A stretch of DNA of 64,000 bases. Source: an uncultured delta proteobacterium. GTDB lineage: Bacteria > Desulfobacterota > Binatia > UBA9968. Shown piece after piece: positions 371-8,870 of the stretch. The first letter of the stretch is position 1. Each line of letters opens with the position of its first letter. Location of the stretch: contig CAVSHR010000014.1 of assembly GCA_963727625.1 (NCBI GenBank), positions 1 to 64,000 of the forward strand, read 5' to 3'. A program made the translations under genes and the position numbers. The notes beneath the pieces were generated by a model. It was given only the letters and a program-made list of their open reading frames with translations, ran no database searches and was not told the origin of the DNA.

Positions 371-797
371 TCAGGGAATTACTTTTCTACACGCTTTACA
401 CGTGTGACCTAATAGCTCTGAAAATTGGCTGGGGAATGCGTGAATCTTAAACTCATCATTGTGAAGTGCAACCTTGACTGCATTTGCAGGCGCGTGAAAT
501 TTCCCATCGCGGTATGAAATTCCAATGTTTTCTGAAGCGACCCAAATCACGTTGACCCTACCCGCGATTGTCAATCTGAACATGGCCCGACGACACGGCG
601 CTTACGATGTAATCCCTATAAGCAACAGTTGAAGGGTCTGAGAACACTGAATTAAAGCTGCTCGTGGACGGAGTTGTATGTTTTATAAATTTTTCTAGCT
701 TATAGTGCGTGTCAAAAAGGTCGGCGGGGACCTCGGGGGTGATCCAACCGCGTTTTTTAGCGCATTCTATACAATAGTATTCCACTTTCGCGGCCAC
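371..797 (-). CDS. Hypothetical ~140 aa protein with N- and C-terminal CxxC (one frameshift near 560)
   Basis: ORFs 558-797 (YYCIECAK) and 371-583 (KIHAFP...HTCKACRK) join at IDNRG/RVNVIW; AT-rich. Confidence 0.6.
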
Positions 798-886
798 GAT
801 CGAGCTTATTCAGAGTACATAGTCTTTACGCGGCGGTTGCCTCGCAATCGCCGGCGGACCGGACATACGGCCATCCAACGCAGGAG

Positions 887-1672
887 TCAGCTCGGGAGCC
901 AAAGTAGGCTCACGACAGCCCAATCGAGGGAATCGCCATCGAGTGTTCCACGACCTCGGGTGCGCGTCCACTACTAGACTCTATCCACGCATCACCTCTA
1001 ACCTCTTCCGGCTCCTCAGGCACGGCACCCTTCTGGAAGAAGTCAATCGCGAGAGACGCCGGTTCGAGTGGCTGTCCCCAGCCGATAAGCCGGGAACCAA
1101 AAGCTGTCACTCTTTCGCGTCCATCGGACGCAACCCTTCTCCGAGTAAACAAGGGCACACATCTCGGGCGAGAACTCAACGAAGCGAATCGCGGTTGCCG
1201 TAATTGACGTTTCGAAGTCGTTCGCAAGCTTCTGAATCGGTCGCAGGTCGACCGGGGATACCTCACAGCGACGACGTACCAACTTTTCAGGCAGCAGAAG
1301 TTCGACGGCGAAGATATTCGCCTCGGATTCTTCAGACTCGCCCTTGTAGTCCAGCATGGACCGTTCTTGGCAACCTGCAAGCGCAGACCCGTCGTGCTTG
1401 AGCGAAAGTGCCCCAGCTCATGCGCAACGCTGAATCGTTGCCGTCCCCACGTTCGAGATCCAGCTTGCGACTCGTATGCGCCCGCGTTCGCCGACTCGCA
1501 CCAGGCGAGCGACCGCGCCATCTAACTCGCCTCGCACGACAGTAACACCTAGGTCAGCCGCAAGACCTTCGAGCACGAGGTGTTTCGGCTCCTCAATGGC
1601 GTAGCGATCAAGGATATCTCTGGCCGCTGCTTTCGCTCGTCTCTCAGGGAATGATAGTTCTCGACGGCTCAA
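887..1672 (-). CDS. ImmA/IrrE (CapP-like) Zn metallopeptidase, several frameshifts
   Basis: Fragments join as ...GELDGAVARLV... / RQRFSVAHELGH (HExxH) / ESEANIFAVELLLP...FETSITATAIRF / EVRGDAW...EHSMAIP; stop at 887-889. Confidence 0.85.
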
Positions 1673-1674
1673 AA

Positions 1675-2070
1675 CTACTCCTCGCTGCCGCTTTTGTCCG
1701 TCTTCACCGAATCGAGGTCTTCGAGCAACGAACGTAAATCGTCATCCGGTACATCGGTCAACTCGCGGTGCTCGACGGCGGCTTGCCGTTCTCCAATCAG
1801 CTTCAATAGTTCTGCCCGGGGCATCCCACGATACCGGCCCACGGTCCGGGCCGCAGGCAGCGCACGGCCTAGCGCCGCGATACGCGCGCGCCGCTGCTCT
1901 GCGATAGCTGCGTTCGCCACTCGCGAGCCTGCGCAATTGCCGCATTCGCATCTGGTCCCAGCCGAAGTGCCTCTTCGCAGGCCGCTTCATCTTCAGCGAA
2001 GACCTCCGACGCAAGGTCAGTGCGACAGAGTCTCCAGAAACTTCAGCTCGTCTCGATCTCCTCCGCTCAT
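1675..2070 (-). CDS. Small helical protein between sigma factor and peptidase (putative anti-sigma / peptidase substrate), frameshifted
   Basis: ATG at 2070 just after the sigma stop (MSGGDRDELKFLETLS...); C-terminus AVEHRELTDVPDDDLRSLLEDL; tightly packed in the operon. Confidence 0.6.
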
Positions 2071-2076
2071 AGAACC

Positions 2077-2691
2077 TCAGTTTATCACTTTGCGAGCCGC
2101 CTCGACGAGCTCCGGCGGGAGTTCCGCAATGAGCCGGTCGAGCCGCTTGCGTGCGTTTGTCACATCACTCGGCGAAAGTCCCGTCGCATCCCCGATGGCG
2201 CTGCGCCCTTCGATGCCCTCCTCATAAGCCATCAAGAGGAACTGAACACCCTCGTCTCCCTTTACAGTGGCCGCCCGGAAGAGGTAATCCTTGACCTTCC
2301 GCACCACGTCCCGCAGCGCTACCAATTCTCCGGTTGGTAGGCGTTGGCCCCACGCTTCGCCATCACCTTGTCGATCACCGTCTCCGACGCCGCAGGCTTG
2401 CGCCGGCTCAGGAGCTTCGACGTCCGCGCGGAAATCGCACCGCAGATGCGTCGAGAGAGCAACGGTCTCGGGATTCCAAGTCAGGCGGCCACGCACCGTA
2501 TCGACGATGACTTGGTTCACGAGGTCGTCCTGATTCAGGTCTATACCGACGCCAAACTTTCGGAGGAGGAACGCCCGCCTTCGCGCGTAGCCGAATACCA
2601 CCTTCAGCGTTCGCGGCTCTGCGAGCGCAGCCTGGATGGCCGCCAGGACCTCCGGCCCCGGCGGCCGCTCTTTTTCGTCGTCTTTATCCAA
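2077..2691 (-). CDS. ECF-like sigma-70 family factor
   Basis: Region-2-like DDLVNQVIVDTVRGRLTWNP; region-4 HTH RSAIGDATGLSPSDVTNARKRL; middle may be frameshifted. Confidence 0.7.
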   Translation of the reverse strand: MDKDDEKERPPGPEVLAAIQAALAEPRTLKVVFGYARRRAFLLRKFGVGIDLNQDDLVNQVIVDTVRGRLTWNPETVALSTHLRCDFRADVEAPEPAQACGVGDGDRQGDGEAWGQRLPTGELVALRDVVRKVKDYLFRAATVKGDEGVQFLLMAYEEGIEGRSAIGDATGLSPSDVTNARKRLDRLIAELPPELVEAARKVIN

Positions 2692-2939
2692 ACCGCGTCA
2701 CCTTGCTTCGTTCTGTCCACGACTCATTCCAATTTGCCGCCGCCTTGCTATTTTCTGCGGCCTGCCCTCGAACTTCTCGTGGCCCGTCGCGGCAATCCGT
2801 CAGTCCAAGCGGATACTACCTCACCGAGGACGGACACCGCGACACCGGCCCGCAGTGGTAAATCGAACGCCGTCATGGACATACCTATTCAAAAGACAAA
2901 ATCTGGAGCCCCCAAGTTGTCCGGCGATGGAGGTATCAG

Positions 2940-3206
2940 ATGGAACAACACCAAGAGTCAATAGTATCCGAGCATCCGGGCAAGGGCCCGAAGTTCGAAG
3001 TGAACGTCGAGGGCATCATCCACGAGTGGTCGTCACCGACCATCACAACGGAGCAGGTTGCCGCGCTCGGCGGCTTTGATCCTGCCCTAGGCGTGCTCGA
3101 AATCGACCTTACCACGAACGAGGAACGACAGCTTCGTCCGGGCGAGACCATCGAGCTCAAGCCTGGCATGGGATTCGCGAAGAAGCGCCGCTTCCGTCGC
3201 GGATGA
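2940..3206 (+). CDS. Ubiquitin-like (multi-ubiquitin domain) protein, BubA/BilA-like
   Basis: Beta-grasp pattern KFEVNVEG...TITTEQVAALGG...ETIELKPG; ends FRRG-stop; RBS ggagg. Confidence 0.8.
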   Translation: MEQHQESIVSEHPGKGPKFEVNVEGIIHEWSSPTITTEQVAALGGFDPALGVLEIDLTTNEERQLRPGETIELKPGMGFAKKRRFRRG

Positions 3207-3212
3207 ACCACC

Positions 3213-3607
3213 ATGGAGGCACGGATCGAGCAGGAACTCCGGCTTCTCCGCACTAGGTGGGCGGAGCTCAAGTACGACTCCGGGGACCGGTGGGTCTTCC
3301 TACCAGGGTACCCGCTGCCCGCCGGCTGGAACCGACCCGTGACCGACATCGTCTTCCAGATTCAGGTTAACCATCCAGGCGCGGCTCCTGGTCACGGCTT
3401 CCTGACGTTGAAGGGGCTGCTCTACAACGGCAAAGTTCCGACGAACTACCAGGACCCTGCGCCAACGCAACCCCCTTTTCCCGGGCCGTGGGGGCCCTTT
3501 TCCTGGTCGCCGGAAGACTGGCAACCGCACGCCGACATCGCCGGCGGCTCGAACCTGTTCACGTGGGCCAGAGCTTCACGCGGCGCTTCCGCGAAGGGGT
3601 GCATGAT
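3213..3607 (+). CDS. Prokaryotic E2/UBC family E protein (BubB/BilB-like); 3' frameshift fuses it to JAB in the ORF track
   Basis: WVFLPGYPLPAGWN...PGAAP...WGPFSWSPEDWQP...NLFTW; an alternative frame gives SFTRRFREG; no Cys. Confidence 0.75.
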
Positions 3608-4130
3608 GCGCAGCGAACTGCACGTTCCCGCGATGACGTACCAGAAGGTGCTTGGCCACCTGTTCTCAAACATGGAGACGGAGCACGCAGCCTTTTTCTA
3701 CGCTCGCGTATCTTCTTCGGAGAGGACGCTCGTGCTCTCGGTAGAGAACCACTTCTTAGTGCCGCCCGACCGGTTTGTCCTCCGGTCTGCCTATCACTTC
3801 GAGCTGTGCGACGACGTCCAACGCGAGATGATCAAGGAAGCGCACGCTCGTGAGTGTTGCCTCGTTGAAGCGCACTCGCATCCGTTCCCGCGCCGGCGTG
3901 CTTCTCAGACACCGACGTTCTCGGACTCCTCGACTGGTTCCTCACGTCCGCTGGCGTCTCGCGAGGCGCCCATATGTTGGCATCGTAGTCGCCCCGGGAG
4001 CTTCGACGGAATTATGTTCTCCGATGGAGAGACGCCGGTCGTGCTCGACACTCTCATCGTCGGCGGAATCCAAATGCGACCGACCGGCGCCACGATTCAC
4101 GATTGGGAGGCTCTCAGTGCACGACGATAA
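3603..4130 (+). CDS. JAB/MPN+ metallopeptidase (BubC/BilC-like), frameshifted
   Basis: TEHAAFF (catalytic E), LVEAHSHP followed by FSxxD in a shifted frame (JAMM motif), PYVGIVVAPGSFDG. Confidence 0.8.
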   Translation: MMRSELHVPAMTYQKVLGHLFSNMETEHAAFFYARVSSSERTLVLSVENHFLVPPDRFVLRSAYHFELCDDVQREMIKEAHARECCLVEAHSHPFPRRRASQTPTFSDSSTGSSRPLASREAPICWHRSRPGSFDGIMFSDGETPVVLDTLIVGGIQMRPTGATIHDWEALSARR

Positions 4131-4961
4131 GCGGTTCGACCGCAGCATCCGGTTCTTTGGTCATGAAGGACAGCAGCGGCTGCAGGCTACGCGCATAGGC
4201 GTGGTCGGCGCCGGCGGGCTCGGGACCCACGTTTTACAACAGCTCGCGCTTCTCGGCGTCGGCGCCCTCATCGTGGTCGACCCGGAGGAACTCGACGACA
4301 CTAACCGCAATCGCTACGTCAGCGCACGGCATGATGACCTTGTTCCGGGGACGCTGAAGGTAGACATTGCGGAGCGTCTCGTCGCCAGCATCAACCCCCA
4401 GGTTATCGTGACGAAGGTACCTTTCTCGTTGATGAGCAGCGAGGCTCTCGATGCCCTCGAAAGCGTCACACATGTGTTCGGTGCCTTGACCACGACGCTC
4501 TACGTCTCGTTCTGACCGAGATCACTGCTGCGTATCGATTGCCGTACGTCGATGCCGCGTCCGAGATTCTTCCGGGACACCCGCCCGAGTTTGGTGGACG
4601 TGTGTGCGTCGCATGGTCCGGAACGTCGTGTCTCTGCTGCATGGACGAGCTCGACCCGGAGGAGTCTCGGGATGCTAATGTTAGGAGAGACCGAGCAGTC
4701 GTCTACGGCCTATCACTTGTCCAAGGCGAGGCAACTCCGTCTGTCGTCTCCTTGAACGGCATCATTGCATCACTGGCGGCGACTGAGTTCATGGTTGGCG
4801 TCACCGGTATCCGCGCGCCGTGGCCGCTTCTCACATACTATGGTGCGTCGGGTACGGTTCGCGTGCGCACTGACGCTCGTCAGGGTTGCTACTACTGTAA
4901 GACGGTCCACGACGCTGGCGACCGCGATGCTGTCCGGCGTTACATCACGGCTGACAAGTAA
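4117..4961 (+). CDS. ThiF/MoeB/E1 adenylyltransferase (BubD/BilD-like), one frameshift near 4480
   Basis: RFDRSIRFFG, VGAGGLG, DPEELDDTNRNR, GCLD after the frameshift, Zn sites CLCC and CYYC, PSVVSLNG. Confidence 0.9.
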
Positions 4962-4988
4962 ATCCACGGGCTCGTCAAGGGAAAAATC

Positions 4989-5053
4989 TGAGGGTCAGGC
5001 CTACTATCGAAGCACAAGAGCACGGGATAGAGAGTCAGATCTTGTATCTTGAC
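4989..5053 (+). repeat. Two REP-like motifs (tgagggtcagg; gagtcagatcttgtatcttgac) at the right boundary
   Basis: Inverted counterparts of 320-330 and 76-97. Confidence 0.5.
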
Positions 5054-5099
5054 TTGTGGATTTTTGTCGTCACCACGCGGCTGCGAAAAATACCTTCTC

Positions 5100-5668
5100 T
5101 CAACCGATAACGGGTTTTTTGACGAGGCTTTCGGTAACGAATGGGAAATTGTCCGCTAGCCAGGCGTCGATCCCGCCTTCGAGCGGGCGAACCCTGGTGA
5201 TTCCTTTGGGTCGTAGGAACAGCGCCACCCGGGCGCTGGTCGCTTCATTGGGTCACGAACAGTAGAGAACGACGTCGCGACCCGGGGAATCTCTCCGTGG
5301 CGCTCCTCGATCTCTTCCATGGGGATACGAAGCGCACCCGGGATCATCTGAGGGAACGCCTCGATATCCATGGGCTGGCGCAAGTCCACGATTGAAATAT
5401 TTTCTCCGGCGTTAATTTTGTCCATGAGTTCCTTCGGAGTGATGCGCGCAATCCGCAGCCGGCGAAGAAAGCGTCGGCGCTGAATGAACTTCCACAAAAC
5501 ATAAGCGGCCAAACCTCCCGCTAGGACCGCGACCAGCCAACCGCCCCAGCGCAGTGCGATCCGCTCGAGTTGTTCGCTGAATATCAAGCCCAAGCTCGTG
5601 ACGCTGACGACCCAGAACAATGCGCCCAGGGAAGCGAAGATCATGGCGACACCCATGAGCAGGCGTTT
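5100..5668 (-). pseudogene. Deleted/truncated copy of the DedA-rhodanese selenoprotein gene
   Basis: 5081-5643 aligns to 7502-8065; 5642-5661 matches 8793-8812; retains the in-frame TGA at 5253-5255; 1-nt indel near 5280. Confidence 0.85.
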
Positions 5669-5720
5669 GTCGGTTGGCTTGTTATGTCAGGCCCTAGTCT
5701 AAGCGCTCATCGTTTTCGCG

Positions 5721-5750
5721 TTACACTTTTCACGGAGAATTTGGTATGAT
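5721..5750 (+). promoter_or_regulatory. Putative sigma70 promoter (TTACAC-18-TATGAT, with extended -10 TG)
   Basis: Consensus-like boxes upstream of the 5804 ATG and its taagga RBS. Confidence 0.45.
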
Positions 5751-5803
5751 AAGGTGTAGGTTAACACGGTAGAGATAAAATCTTCCCTTAAGGATTTTCG
5801 CAG

Positions 5804-6061
5804 ATGGCAGGTCCATCATTTCCAGACATTCTGTATGACTTGATGCAGAAGCAAGCCATCACCTCTCGCGACTTCGATCAATTTATATATAATTACAGGT
5901 TCTTCGATCAGCAGCGATCGAATATTCAAAGATTATATCCTCATCAGTGGGTGGCCGCTTTAGAACTCAAGCTATACAACTCGAAGGACTTCAATGATCT
6001 TCGTGCTCAGCTACGGGATCGACAGAATTTTCGTTACGCCTATATTGAACAAATCTTGTAG
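5804..6061 (+). CDS. Small DUF5678-like protein
   Basis: LYPHQWVAALELKLY resembles the DUF5678 Y..xWVA motif; directly upstream of an Asp protease, a typical pairing. Confidence 0.55.
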   Translation: MAGPSFPDILYDLMQKQAITSRDFDQFIYNYRFFDQQRSNIQRLYPHQWVAALELKLYNSKDFNDLRAQLRDRQNFRYAYIEQIL

Positions 6062-6496
6062 GACTACATGGTGGCACGGGTATCCGTCTGATGGTCGCAT
6101 TGCGGCAGACATTCGTATTCTCAATACTGCAGCGTCGAGTTCCGATATAACATCACTCATTGCCGACACAGGCGCACCGTTTAGTGCGCTTCCGTATTCT
6201 AAAGTATCATTAATAAATAGCGGTGGTACAATTTCCACGCCAATTACGTTTTACGTTGGTGGTAATTCAATCACAACAATGGAAATAGTGGAGGATGGGC
6301 TGCTGACTAATGTTGAGCAGCCTCAGTACACTGGAGGTGGTTGGTGAAGTGCTTAATGGTCCATTTAGAGTTCACTATGCATCTTCGGATCAACCTGTTG
6401 CGGCATGCAGCTGGTATTGATCTTTTCGATTCGTTTGGAGCTGATCCTGTCAAGGACGCTTCAAGTCATCGCGCATATCTGGCAAAGAGAACTTAG
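6062..6496 (+). CDS. Retropepsin-like (clan AA) aspartic protease, frameshifted; start uncertain
   Basis: LIADTGAPFSALP catalytic motif; a C-terminal AGIDLFDSF segment in a shifted frame resembles the LLGxDF motif; stop at 6494-6496. Confidence 0.65.
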
Positions 6497-6526
6497 CATT
6501 AGCAAGCGGCCGAAAGAGAGGAAGTC

Positions 6527-7400
6527 ATGCCCCGAATGATACCTGAGGTTTATACCACGTCGATTCATGAAGGATTGAGGTTATACGCCACATGGCCGAT
6601 CGGGACAGAACTCGAATTAGGTGACTTCGGGCGGCTTGAAAATTATCTTTTCATTAAAGAAGGAAACATTGCTAAGACCTACCGAATTCCTGTCAAGGTA
6701 AAGGATTATCCTCGGCCAGTGTTTTTTGAGTTTAAGTCGTTAGGTACCCAGGGAATTTCGGATTCACTCCCAGGCAGCCGTGAATCCGAGCGTTGGGTGT
6801 TGCTCCCGTAGCCGTTAGGGCGGGCGTGACAGTGAAGTTCGCAAATGAAAATGGATGCTATTTTCGCTCGGTAAAATTGCAGCAATCGTATATCGACAAC
6901 TTGGAAAAAGTTAACACCGCAATCATGAAGCAGTTCTCAAATAGAAAATGGAACGGCCAGTCCGCGTTTGTACATAGCCTTTTTAAGTCTGAAGGAACAT
7001 CAGTTCTTATCGCTAGCTCGGCGGGAGCGCAAATAGAATTTGAAGCTAGTTCAAACGCAATAAAGGAGTTTGATCTCGCGGATGCTTCTGGCGCGTTCCA
7101 AAAAAAAAGTGAGATGGATATAGCATTTAAGCTAATTGCCAAAACAGGTTTGGTTCCGTTATTTACATTATCCCAGGTCCAACCCAAAAACCGGTGGCTC
7201 GCCCTCTTTGGCGCCGGTGGAAAGACAGCACGTCCTCTCTTAGCCGTCTCACCACAGGAAGCGAAAGCGTCCCACTACCTGGATCAGTAATTACCACCTA
7301 TCCACCGACAGTTTCGCCTGATGTGGCACAGGAACTGGACAAGTCTGTAGACGAGTTGTTCCACGTTGTGGAGATTCCTATCCACAGCGGCGGCCACTGA
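6527..7400 (+). CDS. Putative gasdermin-like pore-forming protein (~290 aa after joining two frameshifts)
   Basis: YATWPIGTELELGDFG N-terminal motif; long amphipathic beta strands; W..xFVHSL; LVPLFTL followed by a linker and short C-terminal tail; RBS gagagg. Confidence 0.5.
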
Positions 7401-7456
7401 GCGCGAGCTTTTCTCTGAAAATTTTCGCGCGATGGAAACAGCTAGGGCGAAGCATC

Positions 7457-7480
7457 GGGGTCAGGCTTCTACGACTCGAC
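7457..7480 (+). repeat. REP-like GGGGTCAGG motif
   Basis: ggggtcaggcttctacgactcgac, in the same relative position to the dedA copy as 5032-5053. Confidence 0.45.
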
Positions 7481-7520
7481 TATCCTGAGAAATTGCGGAA
7501 CCTGCGAAAAATACCTTCTC

Positions 7521-8870
7521 TCAGAGAACAACGGGTTTCTTGACGAGGCTTTCGGTAACGAAAGGAAAATTGTACGCGAGCCAGGCGTCGATCCCGCCTT
7601 CGAGCGGGCGAACCCTGGTGATTCCTTTGGCTCGCAGCAGCAGCGCCACACGGGCGCTGGTCGCTTCGTTGGGTCACGAACAGTAGAGAACGACGTCGCG
7701 ATCCCGGGGAATCTCTGCGTGGCGCTCTTCGATCTCTTCCATAGCTATACGAAGCGCACCGGGGATCATCTGAGGGAACGCCTCGATATCCATGGTCTGG
7801 CGCAAGTCCACGATGGAGAGGTTTTCTCCGGCGGTGAGCTTGTCCATGAGTTCCTTCGGCGTGATGCGCGCAATCCGCAGCCGGCGAAGAAAGCGTTGGC
7901 GCTGGATGAACTTCCACAAAACATAAGCTGCCAAACCACCGGCTAGGACCGCGACCAGCCAACCGCCCCAGCGCAGTGCGATCCGCTCGAGTTGATCGCC
8001 GAGAATCAAGCCCAAGCTCGTGACGCTGACGACCCAGAACAATGCGCCCAGGGAAGCGAAGATCAGGAAACGTCGCACGGGCATGCGAAAGACTCCCGCT
8101 AGAGACGATGCCGCGGTATTCAGGCCGGGTATAAATTTGGCGACGAGCAAAGAACGGGCGCCATGCCGGATGAAAAGGTTCTCGGTCCGCCGCACGCAGG
8201 AGTCAGGTTCGAGGGAAATGCGGCACAGTAGCTTCAGTATGCGGCCGCCGCGGTAACGGCCTAGGAAGTACCAGAACAGGTCGGCCAAAATAACCGCGAC
8301 GAACGGCAACGCCAGCGCGAACGTCAAATTCATTTTACCGGCACGGGCCAGCGCGCCGGCCGCGATCAACAGAGGACCAGCCGGGATAGGCAGACCCAGC
8401 TGTTCGAGCAGCACCCAGCCGAACAAGACAGTGTAGCCGTGCCTGATCAGGAAATCGGCCGCTTGGTCCAGACTCAAGGAACTGGCCGCCTCGGGCAAAA
8501 CGCTCGCAAAAAAGAAACTAAGGACAGTCAATATCAGCGCCGCAAGCGCCGATTCGACATAGATCCGACGAGCCTGGGAGCGGAGCCGTTTCTCGGCGCC
8601 TTCGTCGCCGACCGGCTCTTCGGTGCCGTTCATCTTGCGCGCGCCGCGCGCGGCCAAAGCGACTCAGGTCTTTTTGCGCGCCTGGGAGAGAGCGAGAGTT
8701 CCTATCCAGAACGGCAGAAATAGCGCCGCATACCATCCGTGGCTTACATCTGCATGCGCGAAGACGACCGCCAGGACGACGCCCACGGCGAGCATGGCGA
8801 CACCCATGAGCAAACGCTTACGGATCTCCTTCGGCCCGATATTGGCGAGCTCTGCTTTTCCGCCGTTCAT
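7521..8870 (-). CDS. Membrane protein-DedA/VTT-rhodanese fusion with two in-frame UGA (probable selenocysteine) codons, 449 aa
   Basis: ORFs 8664-8870 and 7674-8657 and the tail to 7521 share one frame: QARKKT-U-VALAARG and VVLYCS-U-PNEATSARVA...RPLEGGIDAW; DedA motifs EQLGLPIP and AKFIPG. Confidence 0.85.
7641..7659 (-). promoter_or_regulatory. SECIS-like hairpin for UGA 7674-7676
   Basis: CAGCGCC-cgugu-GGCGCUG; loop starts 21 nt after the UGA; the stem is conserved in the copy at 5220-5238. Confidence 0.6.
8637..8651 (-). promoter_or_regulatory. SECIS-like hairpin for UGA 8664-8666
   Basis: GCGCGC-ggc-GCGCGC; loop starts with G, 18 nt after the UGA. Confidence 0.5.

Follow-up and report, generated by a model that had tools for sequence, protein, structure and literature searches.

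A CapP-Family Peptidase, a Helical Partner Protein, and a Divergent ECF-Type Sigma Factor as a Candidate Positively Acting Switch beside Bacterial Defense Operons

We analyzed a 64,000-nucleotide stretch of DNA from an uncultured delta proteobacterium (positions 1 to 64,000 of contig CAVSHR010000014.1, assembly GCA_963727625.1; hereafter the window), in which genes for a putative extracytoplasmic function (ECF)-type sigma factor, a small partner protein, and a Zn metallopeptidase lie next to an operon that begins with a gene for a ubiquitin-like protein (Ubl). We consider it rather probable that this triad is a portable switch, in which a private ECF-type sigma factor is held by its partner until the peptidase, a member of the CapP family, cuts that partner, after which the defense operon and the switch itself are transcribed. 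The gene order, the protein families, the lack of a helix-turn-helix (HTH) protein, a conserved Arg, the placement of promoter-like motifs, and the linkage to defense genes are established at the level of sequence, the complex of sigma factor and partner is a prediction, and we infer a single-stranded DNA (ssDNA) trigger, a cut before Arg101 of the partner, and release of the sigma factor.

A six-frame reading of positions 700-5200 gave three co-oriented minus-strand genes and a plus-strand Ubl gene starting at 2940 (Table 1). This agrees with a first-pass annotation of the same DNA, made from its letters alone, which had described a co-oriented triad of an ECF-like sigma factor, a small protein, and an HExxH metallopeptidase, placed head-to-head with the Ubl operon across 248 bp (the gap runs from 2692 to 2939) and lacking an Xre repressor; our own search of the cassette for an XRE or HTH gene found none, and the AVEH-RELT... 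segment quoted for the small protein is present in the partner. The gene order is not a product of chance, because it recurs in 116 of the 162 loci examined, and the triad has been missed by annotation because its sigma factor and partner are labeled "hypothetical." In a genome of the same genus (G004), the sole match among 60 relatives, the whole seven-gene block is intact and encodes a sigma factor of 205 amino acids (aa), a partner of 130 aa, and a peptidase of 261 aa; this copy (L005 in our locus collection, in which L016 is the same copy) was used for the structure, complex, and locus searches.

Judged by its family profile, the sigma factor is a divergent ECF-type protein that lies below curated thresholds. 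Sigma70_r2 is detected at E ≤ 0.01 in 23 of the 107 proteins of the family alignment, and the profile covers both sigma2 and sigma4 of solved ECF sigma factors (SigH, E 6.5e-8; SigE, E 9e-6; CnrH, E 5e-5; RpoE, E 2e-4), which bears out the ECF-like assignment of the first-pass annotation, short of the curated cut-offs. The Asp-Leu of region 2.2 is conserved, and the structure model consists of two helical domains (pLDDT 89). A FastTree phylogeny groups the window sigma factor with myxobacterial ones. One scan of viral contigs with the alignment of close sigma factors found no relative, and the main text of PMC7826278 does not mention IrrE, ImmA, or a peptidase.

Evidence on what the small protein does comes from complex prediction, in which the G004 sigma factor and partner scored 0.89, 0.90, and 0.89, compared with 0.36 for the best of three controls; the runs share at least 91% of their contacts, and the partner reaches a pLDDT of at least 74. 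The confident interface joins partner residues 5-62 to sigma residues 10-96 and 124-189, with helix 1 on sigma4, and all of its approximately 150 confident contacts fall within those partner residues. The partner is thus predicted to bind the sigma factor between sigma2 and sigma4, in keeping with the anti-sigma role that the first-pass annotation had proposed for it. According to the available text of PMC7406223, class I anti-sigma domains have an N-terminal helical domain that contacts sigma4 through helix 1 and also sigma2, and the predicted dual contact of the partner matches this pattern.

The partner model is all-helical (monomer pTM 0.39) and comprises three N-terminal helices, the predicted anti-sigma domain, followed by a C-terminal helix-extended-helix module. 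A search of 1.84 billion representatives with the partner profile returned 37 matches at E ≤ 0.001, mostly of 125-143 aa. None of the 107 members of the partner family matches an HTH or XRE family at E ≤ 0.01, no HTH is seen in the structure model, Pfam gave no match for the sigma factor or the partner of the window, and comparison of the partner with the PDB by sequence and by fold (the latter with the monomer model) returned neither an anti-sigma nor a CapH domain among the matches. The family is acidic, with a median pI of 4.9 and a median net charge of -7 (-6 after the Arg), compared with pI values of 5.9-10.1 for 14 XRE partners, namely those of 14 non-triad loci, picked by eye, in which an XRE gene precedes the peptidase gene.

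Toward the C terminus, Arg101 is the most conserved residue of the partner (118 of 128 members); it is preceded by F, H, Y, or A (43, 28, 27, and 23 members, respectively) and followed by an acidic helix. An hhalign comparison places the last 37 columns of the partner profile on the C termini of the same 14 XRE partners, with Arg aligned to Arg (probability 62.6, E 7e-5; these proteins, not CapH itself, were the comparison target), and the likeness is confined to these columns. Since this C terminus aligns with those of XRE partners while the protein has no HTH, the partner has retained the substrate module, with its DNA-binding head replaced. In CapH, the cut lies between F82 and R83, and a docking of the last helix against CapP is predicted (10.64898/2026.05.16.725639). 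This agrees with the first-pass annotation, which had pointed to cleavage just before an Arg near the C-terminal helix of HTH repressors: both Arg101 and the helix behind it have counterparts in XRE partners of the same peptidase family.

Other partner-like genes were observed in the collected loci. A third kind of CapP partner (L062, L094, L155, L163, and L050), encoded upstream of capP and, by eye, zinc-ribbon-like with an excisionase-type HTH, ends in the same Ala-Ala/Arg-helix module (hhalign E 2e-4, probability 45.9). Five upstream genes that resemble the partner in size and C-terminal module but were not picked up by its profile (L119, L143, L159, L161, and L133) probably represent further divergent triads, and partner and peptidase share a single open frame in L063 (8515-9774), a possible fusion.

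The peptidase belongs, as judged from its sequence, to the CapP family over its whole length: it matches the PADLOC capP model at E 3e-52 (model positions 4-241 of 242), its nearest solved structure is 7t5t (E 2.7e-30, profile positions 67-261), and it carries HELGH, a third-ligand Glu, a cysteine switch, an HTH, and a GAF-like part. All 52 aligned peptidases (the first plus 51 of 120 listed relatives) share H84, E85, H88, C101, and E115, and the switch Cys, C101, aligns with the Cys of 7t5t. The HExxH motif, which the first-pass annotation had picked out, is also present in the window peptidase, as is the third Glu ligand. Both the switch Cys and the Arg preceding an F-S-I-A-H motif, which matches CapP R90, are kept, and activation by ssDNA is likely by analogy with the family. 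The peptidase profile has no further match in the genome.

A Gibbs search of the 330 nt preceding the sigma gene, with the window left out, found TGGC(A/G)AAA, a spacer of 14-15 nt, and CGG(C/T) in all 11 Desulfobacterota-type and all 14 Chloroflexota-type loci, with an information content of 29.8 and 24.5 bits in the two clades, compared with 16.5-18.0 bits in two shuffles each. In 24 of these 25 loci (L054 was left out), a pattern derived from the operon-facing strand is present on that strand in 23 and on the opposite, triad-facing one in 12, compared with 0.9 and 0.6 after shuffling. The version found in the window, GG(C/T)AA-N14-YGGA(C/T)A, is present at three places in the 64 kb, each within the gap; the G004 gap has the same three copies, and L096 has four in its gap under a slightly relaxed pattern, one of them beyond the aligned stretch. 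ECF sigma factors have autoregulatory bipartite promoters, and the motif on both strands of the gap agrees with such a promoter, a function that is predicted here. Across the genome, 35 matches at spacer 14 compared with 13-33 at other spacers amount to no excess, and a scan of 700-5200 for sigma70-type promoters and terminators found nothing above chance. The regulon thus appears to be local, and a private sigma factor with a local regulon and autoregulation fits these observations, given that the sites lie in the gap, that there is no genome-wide excess, and that no sigma70 promoter was found in 700-5200.

These results lead us to propose the following sequence of events. The three N-terminal helices of the partner are predicted to wedge between sigma2 and sigma4 and mask the surfaces that bind polymerase and the -35 element. 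If the peptidase behaves as its family membership suggests, ssDNA arising from DNA damage or infection would open its cysteine switch, and it would then cut the CapH-like C-terminal module of the partner before Arg101. At the weakest step of the scheme, the new C terminus would most likely serve as a degron, and ATP-dependent proteases would remove the sigma-bound fragment. The freed sigma factor, together with core polymerase, is predicted to read the GG(C/T)AA-N14-YGGA(C/T)A sites, two toward the Ubl operon and one toward the triad, and the latter site would create a positive feedback that newly made partner later damps.

Cleavage alone probably does not free the sigma factor, since the module around the scissile bond lies outside the confident interface of the modeled complex, and the cut would need a second step or another effect. 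For the same reason we favor a degron. In the case of RseA, the sigma-bound fragment is removed by ATP-dependent proteases, and clpX is present in the genome. The fragments of CalpT likewise stay bound after the cut until an exposed LAA end is degraded, as far as reported in 10.1101/2024.05.08.593097. The release step is the least certain one because the window partner would end in ...AVEH, which is not a recognized degron; an Ala-Ala end is expected in only 16 of 100 family members. A release that needs no degron, in which the C-terminal module dimerizes the partner or adds a sigma contact and the cut lowers affinity, is an improbable variant of the same anti-sigma switch. It would suit most members, whose ends after the cut would be His, Phe, or Tyr, not Ala-Ala, the homologous C-terminal domain of CapH is described as a dimerization domain (10.64898/2026.05.16.725639), and partner residues that the predicted interface does not name count as uncertain, not as excluded. 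However, with all confident contacts in residues 5-62, the N-terminal fragment should still bind, and in the account given in 10.1101/2024.05.08.593097 cleavage alone did not release the sigma factor of CalpT.

The loci in which the triad was sought (n = 162) comprise the best 80 genome and best 80 metagenome matches to the peptidase alignment plus two of four found with the partner alignment in a 400-genome phylum search; the collection was made via the peptidase, the partner alignment being too diverse for a locus search, genes were called by a simple longest-ORF rule, and neighbors were labeled manually. By position-restricted profile iteration, the partner was found in 128 of the 162 loci, the sigma factor in 120, and both in 116, in carriers that include Myxococcota, Thermodesulfobacteriota, Chloroflexota, Pseudomonadota, Verrucomicrobiota, Acidobacteriota, and Bacteroidota, and the sigma and partner genes either overlap or lie almost end to end (the median gap over 107 full pairs is -4 nt). 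L013 duplicates L017, and L015, also a triad, was excluded for strand. In the neighbor analysis, which used 90 of 114 triads with 2 kb upstream after removal of two near-duplicates, 63 triads face a defense-type operon, Bub, CBASS, Bil, and Pycsar being among the kinds: Bub-like in 23, CBASS in 19, MBL+E2/E1 in 4, Bil in 2, six single established kinds, and nine candidate ones. The survey called for in the first-pass annotation thus does tie the triad to defense loci. The six largest neighbor families (30, 17, 12, 9, 8, and 8 proteins) are all on the divergent side, and for 67 of the 90 loci the first large ORF upstream runs divergently, compared with 38 minus-strand and 46 plus-strand ORFs downstream.

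The remaining 27 of the 90 loci, including most of the myxobacterial clade of the window sigma factor, have no recognized divergent defense gene. A further scan of these loci found same-strand upstream restriction or DarTG genes in four; one locus carries a PDC-S34-like HAD gene, another has dxs, and the myxobacterial clade yielded mostly nothing. Such loci, and the one that adjoins dxs in particular, would agree with a switch whose trigger is neither ssDNA nor infection (zinc or redox stress, for instance) and whose targets are general stress or accessory genes instead of defense genes; IrrE activity is likewise dependent on free zinc according to 10.64898/2026.05.16.725639, and no Bub operon had shown phage protection in the account of PMC11601596. 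We regard this as quite unlikely, given that 54 of the 90 triads face established defense or conjugation families, with 9 more facing candidate ones, and that the peptidase retains both the Arg matching CapP R90 and the switch Cys.

Among the unassigned neighborhoods, the 12 myxobacterial triads of the closest sigma clade (L022, L023, L026, L027, L032, L033, L036, L037, L042, L047, L063, and L085) mostly face genes with no Pfam or PADLOC assignment, which are candidate new targets, and five of them have another upstream motif in common (GTTCAGTAACC...). A 103-aa gene without a Pfam or PADLOC match recurs directly divergent from the sigma gene in L052, L101, and L109.

Still less likely is that the partner is also, or mainly, a DNA-binding repressor that acts through its helix-extended-helix module, so that the cut derepresses as with CapH and the sigma factor is an accessory. 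Partner residues 76-125 do resemble Rho-N/LEM/EndoVII helix-extended-helix folds (Z 5-6, at best 6.0; rmsd 2.4 over 45 aligned residues), Lau et al. enter such loci as capH + capP + sigma, and the motif in Bacteroidota is palindromic. Yet a Z of 6 is weak for a small helical motif, two back-to-back -35 elements would also give a palindrome, and elsewhere the motif is bipartite and directional; the first-pass annotation had itself named this alternative, and the complete lack of HTH matches and the acidity of the family, also past the Arg, argue against it. The least likely reading of all is that the sigma-like protein has lost its function with RNA polymerase and sits at the bipartite sites as a site-specific repressor or decoy, for which the partner would be a co-factor: all curated sigma cut-offs are missed and the fold search gave no match at E ≤ 0.001, but the two sigma domains are conserved, as is the Asp-Leu of region 2.2, the spacer of 14-15 nt and the location a short way upstream of start codons agree with a promoter, and no sigma70-type promoter was found in 700-5200.

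Several points, in addition to the 27 loci and the AVEH end described above, weigh against our preferred reading of the triad as a CapP-triggered sigma switch. Its mechanistic steps rest on sequence, prediction, and inference. The window and G004 sigma factors match no Pfam or NCBIfam sigma model, TIGR02937 reaches at best 29 of the required 42.9 bits in relatives, with no curated cut-off attained in the proteins scanned against them, and Foldseek ranks CnrH first with an E of only 0.12. Of 157 solved complexes, 116 attain the mark set for the complex score, as do 2 of 215 mismatched pairs, a calibration that is rough because the prediction used 107-row alignments of our own making, and the score may owe something to likeness with solved sigma/anti-sigma pairs. 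The Ala-Ala/Arg junction also occurs in partners that are not anti-sigma factors, and a contact of the CapP-CapH model, in which the HTH of CapH also docks on the GAF domain (10.64898/2026.05.16.725639), is impossible here, as the partner has no HTH. The Gibbs search gave no clear margin over shuffles in the alpha and Verrucomicrobia groups, and weak motifs in the myxobacterial group (19.7) and in Bacteroidota (19.9, the palindromic one); the window pattern was written after its sites had been seen, which makes its chance figure of 0.22 circular. The loci share ancestry and were picked for their likeness to a single CapP, and the defense linkage is a count within this set. Finally, the window copy differs from that of G004 by 18 indel events (1-3 nt each), of which 17 shift the frame, and none of the three triad genes is a clean frame in the window assembly. 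The first-pass annotation had overlooked these frameshifts, along with the promoter motif and the Bub type of the operon.

Window positions 867-4947 align with G004 at 84.9% identity, and homology stops at each cassette end. Ten of the indels fall in the triad and 8 in the Ubl operon. Those in the sigma gene (~2446 and ~2337) compensate each other and leave about 36 middle codons off-frame (second-frame match at 2340-2459); the others in the triad are at ~2019, ~1995, and ~1920 in the partner gene and at ~1448, ~1407, ~1402, ~1094, and ~921 in the peptidase gene. Codon comparison gave 257 synonymous and 177 nonsynonymous changes and no new stop codon. We favor sequencing error at the contig end as the likely cause, because long-ORF cover of the first 10 kb is 0.29, the lowest measured on the contig (whole contigs, 0.50-0.68), and several indels lie within short runs of one base; decay of the cassette is the unlikelier cause. 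The frames of floA and nfeD at 45.9-48.2 kb of the same contig carry no frameshift, which weighs against sequencing error, and the idea that the whole contig is noisy proved only partly true.

Around the cassette, two short minus-strand ORFs (79 and 70 aa) at 371-797, just downstream of the peptidase gene and outside the cassette common to the window and G004, resemble one frameshifted gene. On the other side, the two copies of a 564-bp direct repeat (5081-5643 and 7502-8065; 92.6% identity), which amounts to a partial second copy of the end of the DedA/rhodanese gene, flank a lower-GC island at 5650-7500. The island contains two abutting ORFs of 94 and 165 aa (6527-7290), probably one frameshifted gene, with no convincing match in Pfam, NCBIfam, or the PDB. 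Their WP-x6-GD start is reminiscent of bacterial gasdermin-like proteins.

The operon that the triad faces runs in the order Ubl, family-E E2, JAB, E1, and cassette homology between the window and G004 ends at the E1 stop. The G004 E2 lacks the Cys and has the Ser column, and the E1 has the Tyr column, as in the Bub-like loci collected here; these columns were compared among those loci, not residue by residue with S333 and Y370 of Citrobacter. The E1 matches BubCD at E 4e-13 and the E2 matches BubB at E 0.23, and no DUF6527/BubE was found in the window, G004, L019, L046, L055, or L096. On this evidence the operon is best described as Bub-type, without BubE and without the fusions of types I and II. 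An assignment to type II Bil was rejected, the E2 being without Cys and the E1 single-domain with Tyr. Like the Bub (6E/DUF6527) operons of PMC11601596, it has a Ubl, a family-E E2 with Ser for Cys, a JAB, and an E1 with the conserved Tyr; unlike those of types I and II, which fuse C-D or B-D and, as far as described there, all have BubE, it consists of four separate genes. The same four-gene operon, fitting neither of the described types, is seen in L016, L019, L046, L055, and L096 in addition to window 2940-4961.

Table 1. Features of the triad, the intergenic gap, and the facing operon in the window
Feature	Position	Strand	Remarks
ECF-type sigma gene (putative)	2691-2077	-	sigma2 and sigma4 only; TTG start
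Sigma partner gene	2070-1675	-	all-helical acidic protein, ~130 aa
Predicted scissile bond His100/Arg101 of partner	1765-1770	-	H codon 1770-1768, R codon 1767-1765; putative cleavage
CapP-family Zn metallopeptidase gene	1672-887	-	HELGH at 1422-1408
Promoter-like site GGCAA-N14-TGGACA	2714-2738	-	oriented to triad; autoregulation predicted
Promoter-like site GGCAA-N14-CGGATA	2791-2815	+	oriented to Ubl operon
Promoter-like site GGTAA-N14-TGGACA	2857-2881	+	second site oriented to Ubl operon
Ubl (Multi_ubiq), BubA-like	2940-3206	+	88 aa, intact, first gene of operon; E 5.9e-9
Family-E E2 without Cys (G004 copy), with conserved Ser of BubB	3213-3606	+	frameshifted here
Stand-alone JAB peptidase, BubC-like	3603-4130	+	frameshifted here
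Single-domain E1/ThiF, Tyr at position conserved in fused Bub-like E1s	4117-4961	+	one frameshift here

To our knowledge, the DNA-damage controllers of immune operons known so far (CapW and CapH+CapP as well as CapK+CapS) all lift a repressor. The triad shares with CapH+CapP the peptidase family with its cysteine switch, a partner C terminus in which a helix follows the x/R junction, and a placement divergent from CBASS, Bub, and Bil operons; however, its partner has no HTH and is predicted to bind a sigma factor, and control would be positive, through a private sigma factor and its promoters, instead of derepression of a host promoter. Because the partner carries no HTH, the triad is not a member of CapH+CapP, and our data support the view that it uses the sensor and substrate module of that system with opposite logic. 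The first-pass annotation had suggested a positive-control variant of defense regulation, and the complex prediction, the HTH-less acidic partner, the defense linkage, and the aligned Arg module all speak for it. Lau et al. (10.1101/2022.04.27.489752) counted 24 CBASS systems in which capH and capP are accompanied by a predicted sigma70-family factor, with no mechanism given in the available text, and these may be the present triad or an HTH-bearing form. Of 544 Bub operons, 168 are reported to adjoin CapH+CapP (PMC11601596), and the regulator columns of the published Bub table, in its accessible part, hold CapP, CapH, and CapW only, with no "sigma" entry found. No description of a CapP-cleaved anti-sigma factor was found in the accessible text of PMC10557695, 10.1101/2024.11.21.623966, PMC13373217, or PMC7826278 or in literature searches, which left most subscription papers and bioRxiv supplements uncovered.

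Related logic has been described elsewhere. CalpL-CalpT-CalpS of type III CRISPR is likewise a defense triad of soluble protease, anti-sigma factor, and ECF-like sigma factor, but CalpL is a SAVED-Lon protease activated by cA4, in contrast to a Zn peptidase that would sense ssDNA, and CalpS is, in the available description, an effector downstream of CRISPR, whereas the present sigma factor would be an upstream controller of a divergent operon (10.1101/2024.05.08.593097). In Myxococcus xanthus, the ECF sigma/anti-sigma pair DdvS and DdvA controls a CBASS-CRISPR island, and DdvA also binds sigma2 and sigma4 with a three-helix N-terminal bundle; DdvA is, however, a transmembrane, zinc-binding protein with a periplasmic TPR-CHAT sensor (PMC11506125), while the partner described here is soluble, has no conserved Cys, and would depend on a separate cytoplasmic peptidase as sensor. 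IrrE/DdrO and ImmA/ImmR share an M78 peptidase triggered by DNA damage (the peptidase matches 3dte at E 1.8e-5), but both cut XRE repressors and involve no sigma factor.

Our findings lead us to speculate, tentatively and with a little less than even confidence, that the CapH C-terminal module is a portable DNA-damage cut tag carried on at least three heads (an XRE repressor, a zinc-ribbon/excisionase-type HTH, and an anti-sigma domain), and that the anti-sigma form is a widespread, self-contained, positively acting immune switch equipped with a sigma factor and promoters of its own. Among the nearest relatives of CapP the triad is frequent, with 116 of 162 loci and many phyla, and part of the published "CapH+CapP" defense loci would then be sigma switches. 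Its three small soluble proteins and 248-bp region would also make up a compact, orthogonal, damage-inducible switch for synthetic biology, and the triad could serve as a hook for new defense systems, as 27 of 90 face unassigned genes, and is a candidate inducer for Bub operons.

If our reading is true, a positively acting controller would couple the ssDNA-sensing peptidase with the logic of a sigma/anti-sigma pair. It would function in any host, whatever the promoter types of that host, and could keep defense genes inducible when a phage disables the housekeeping sigma factor.

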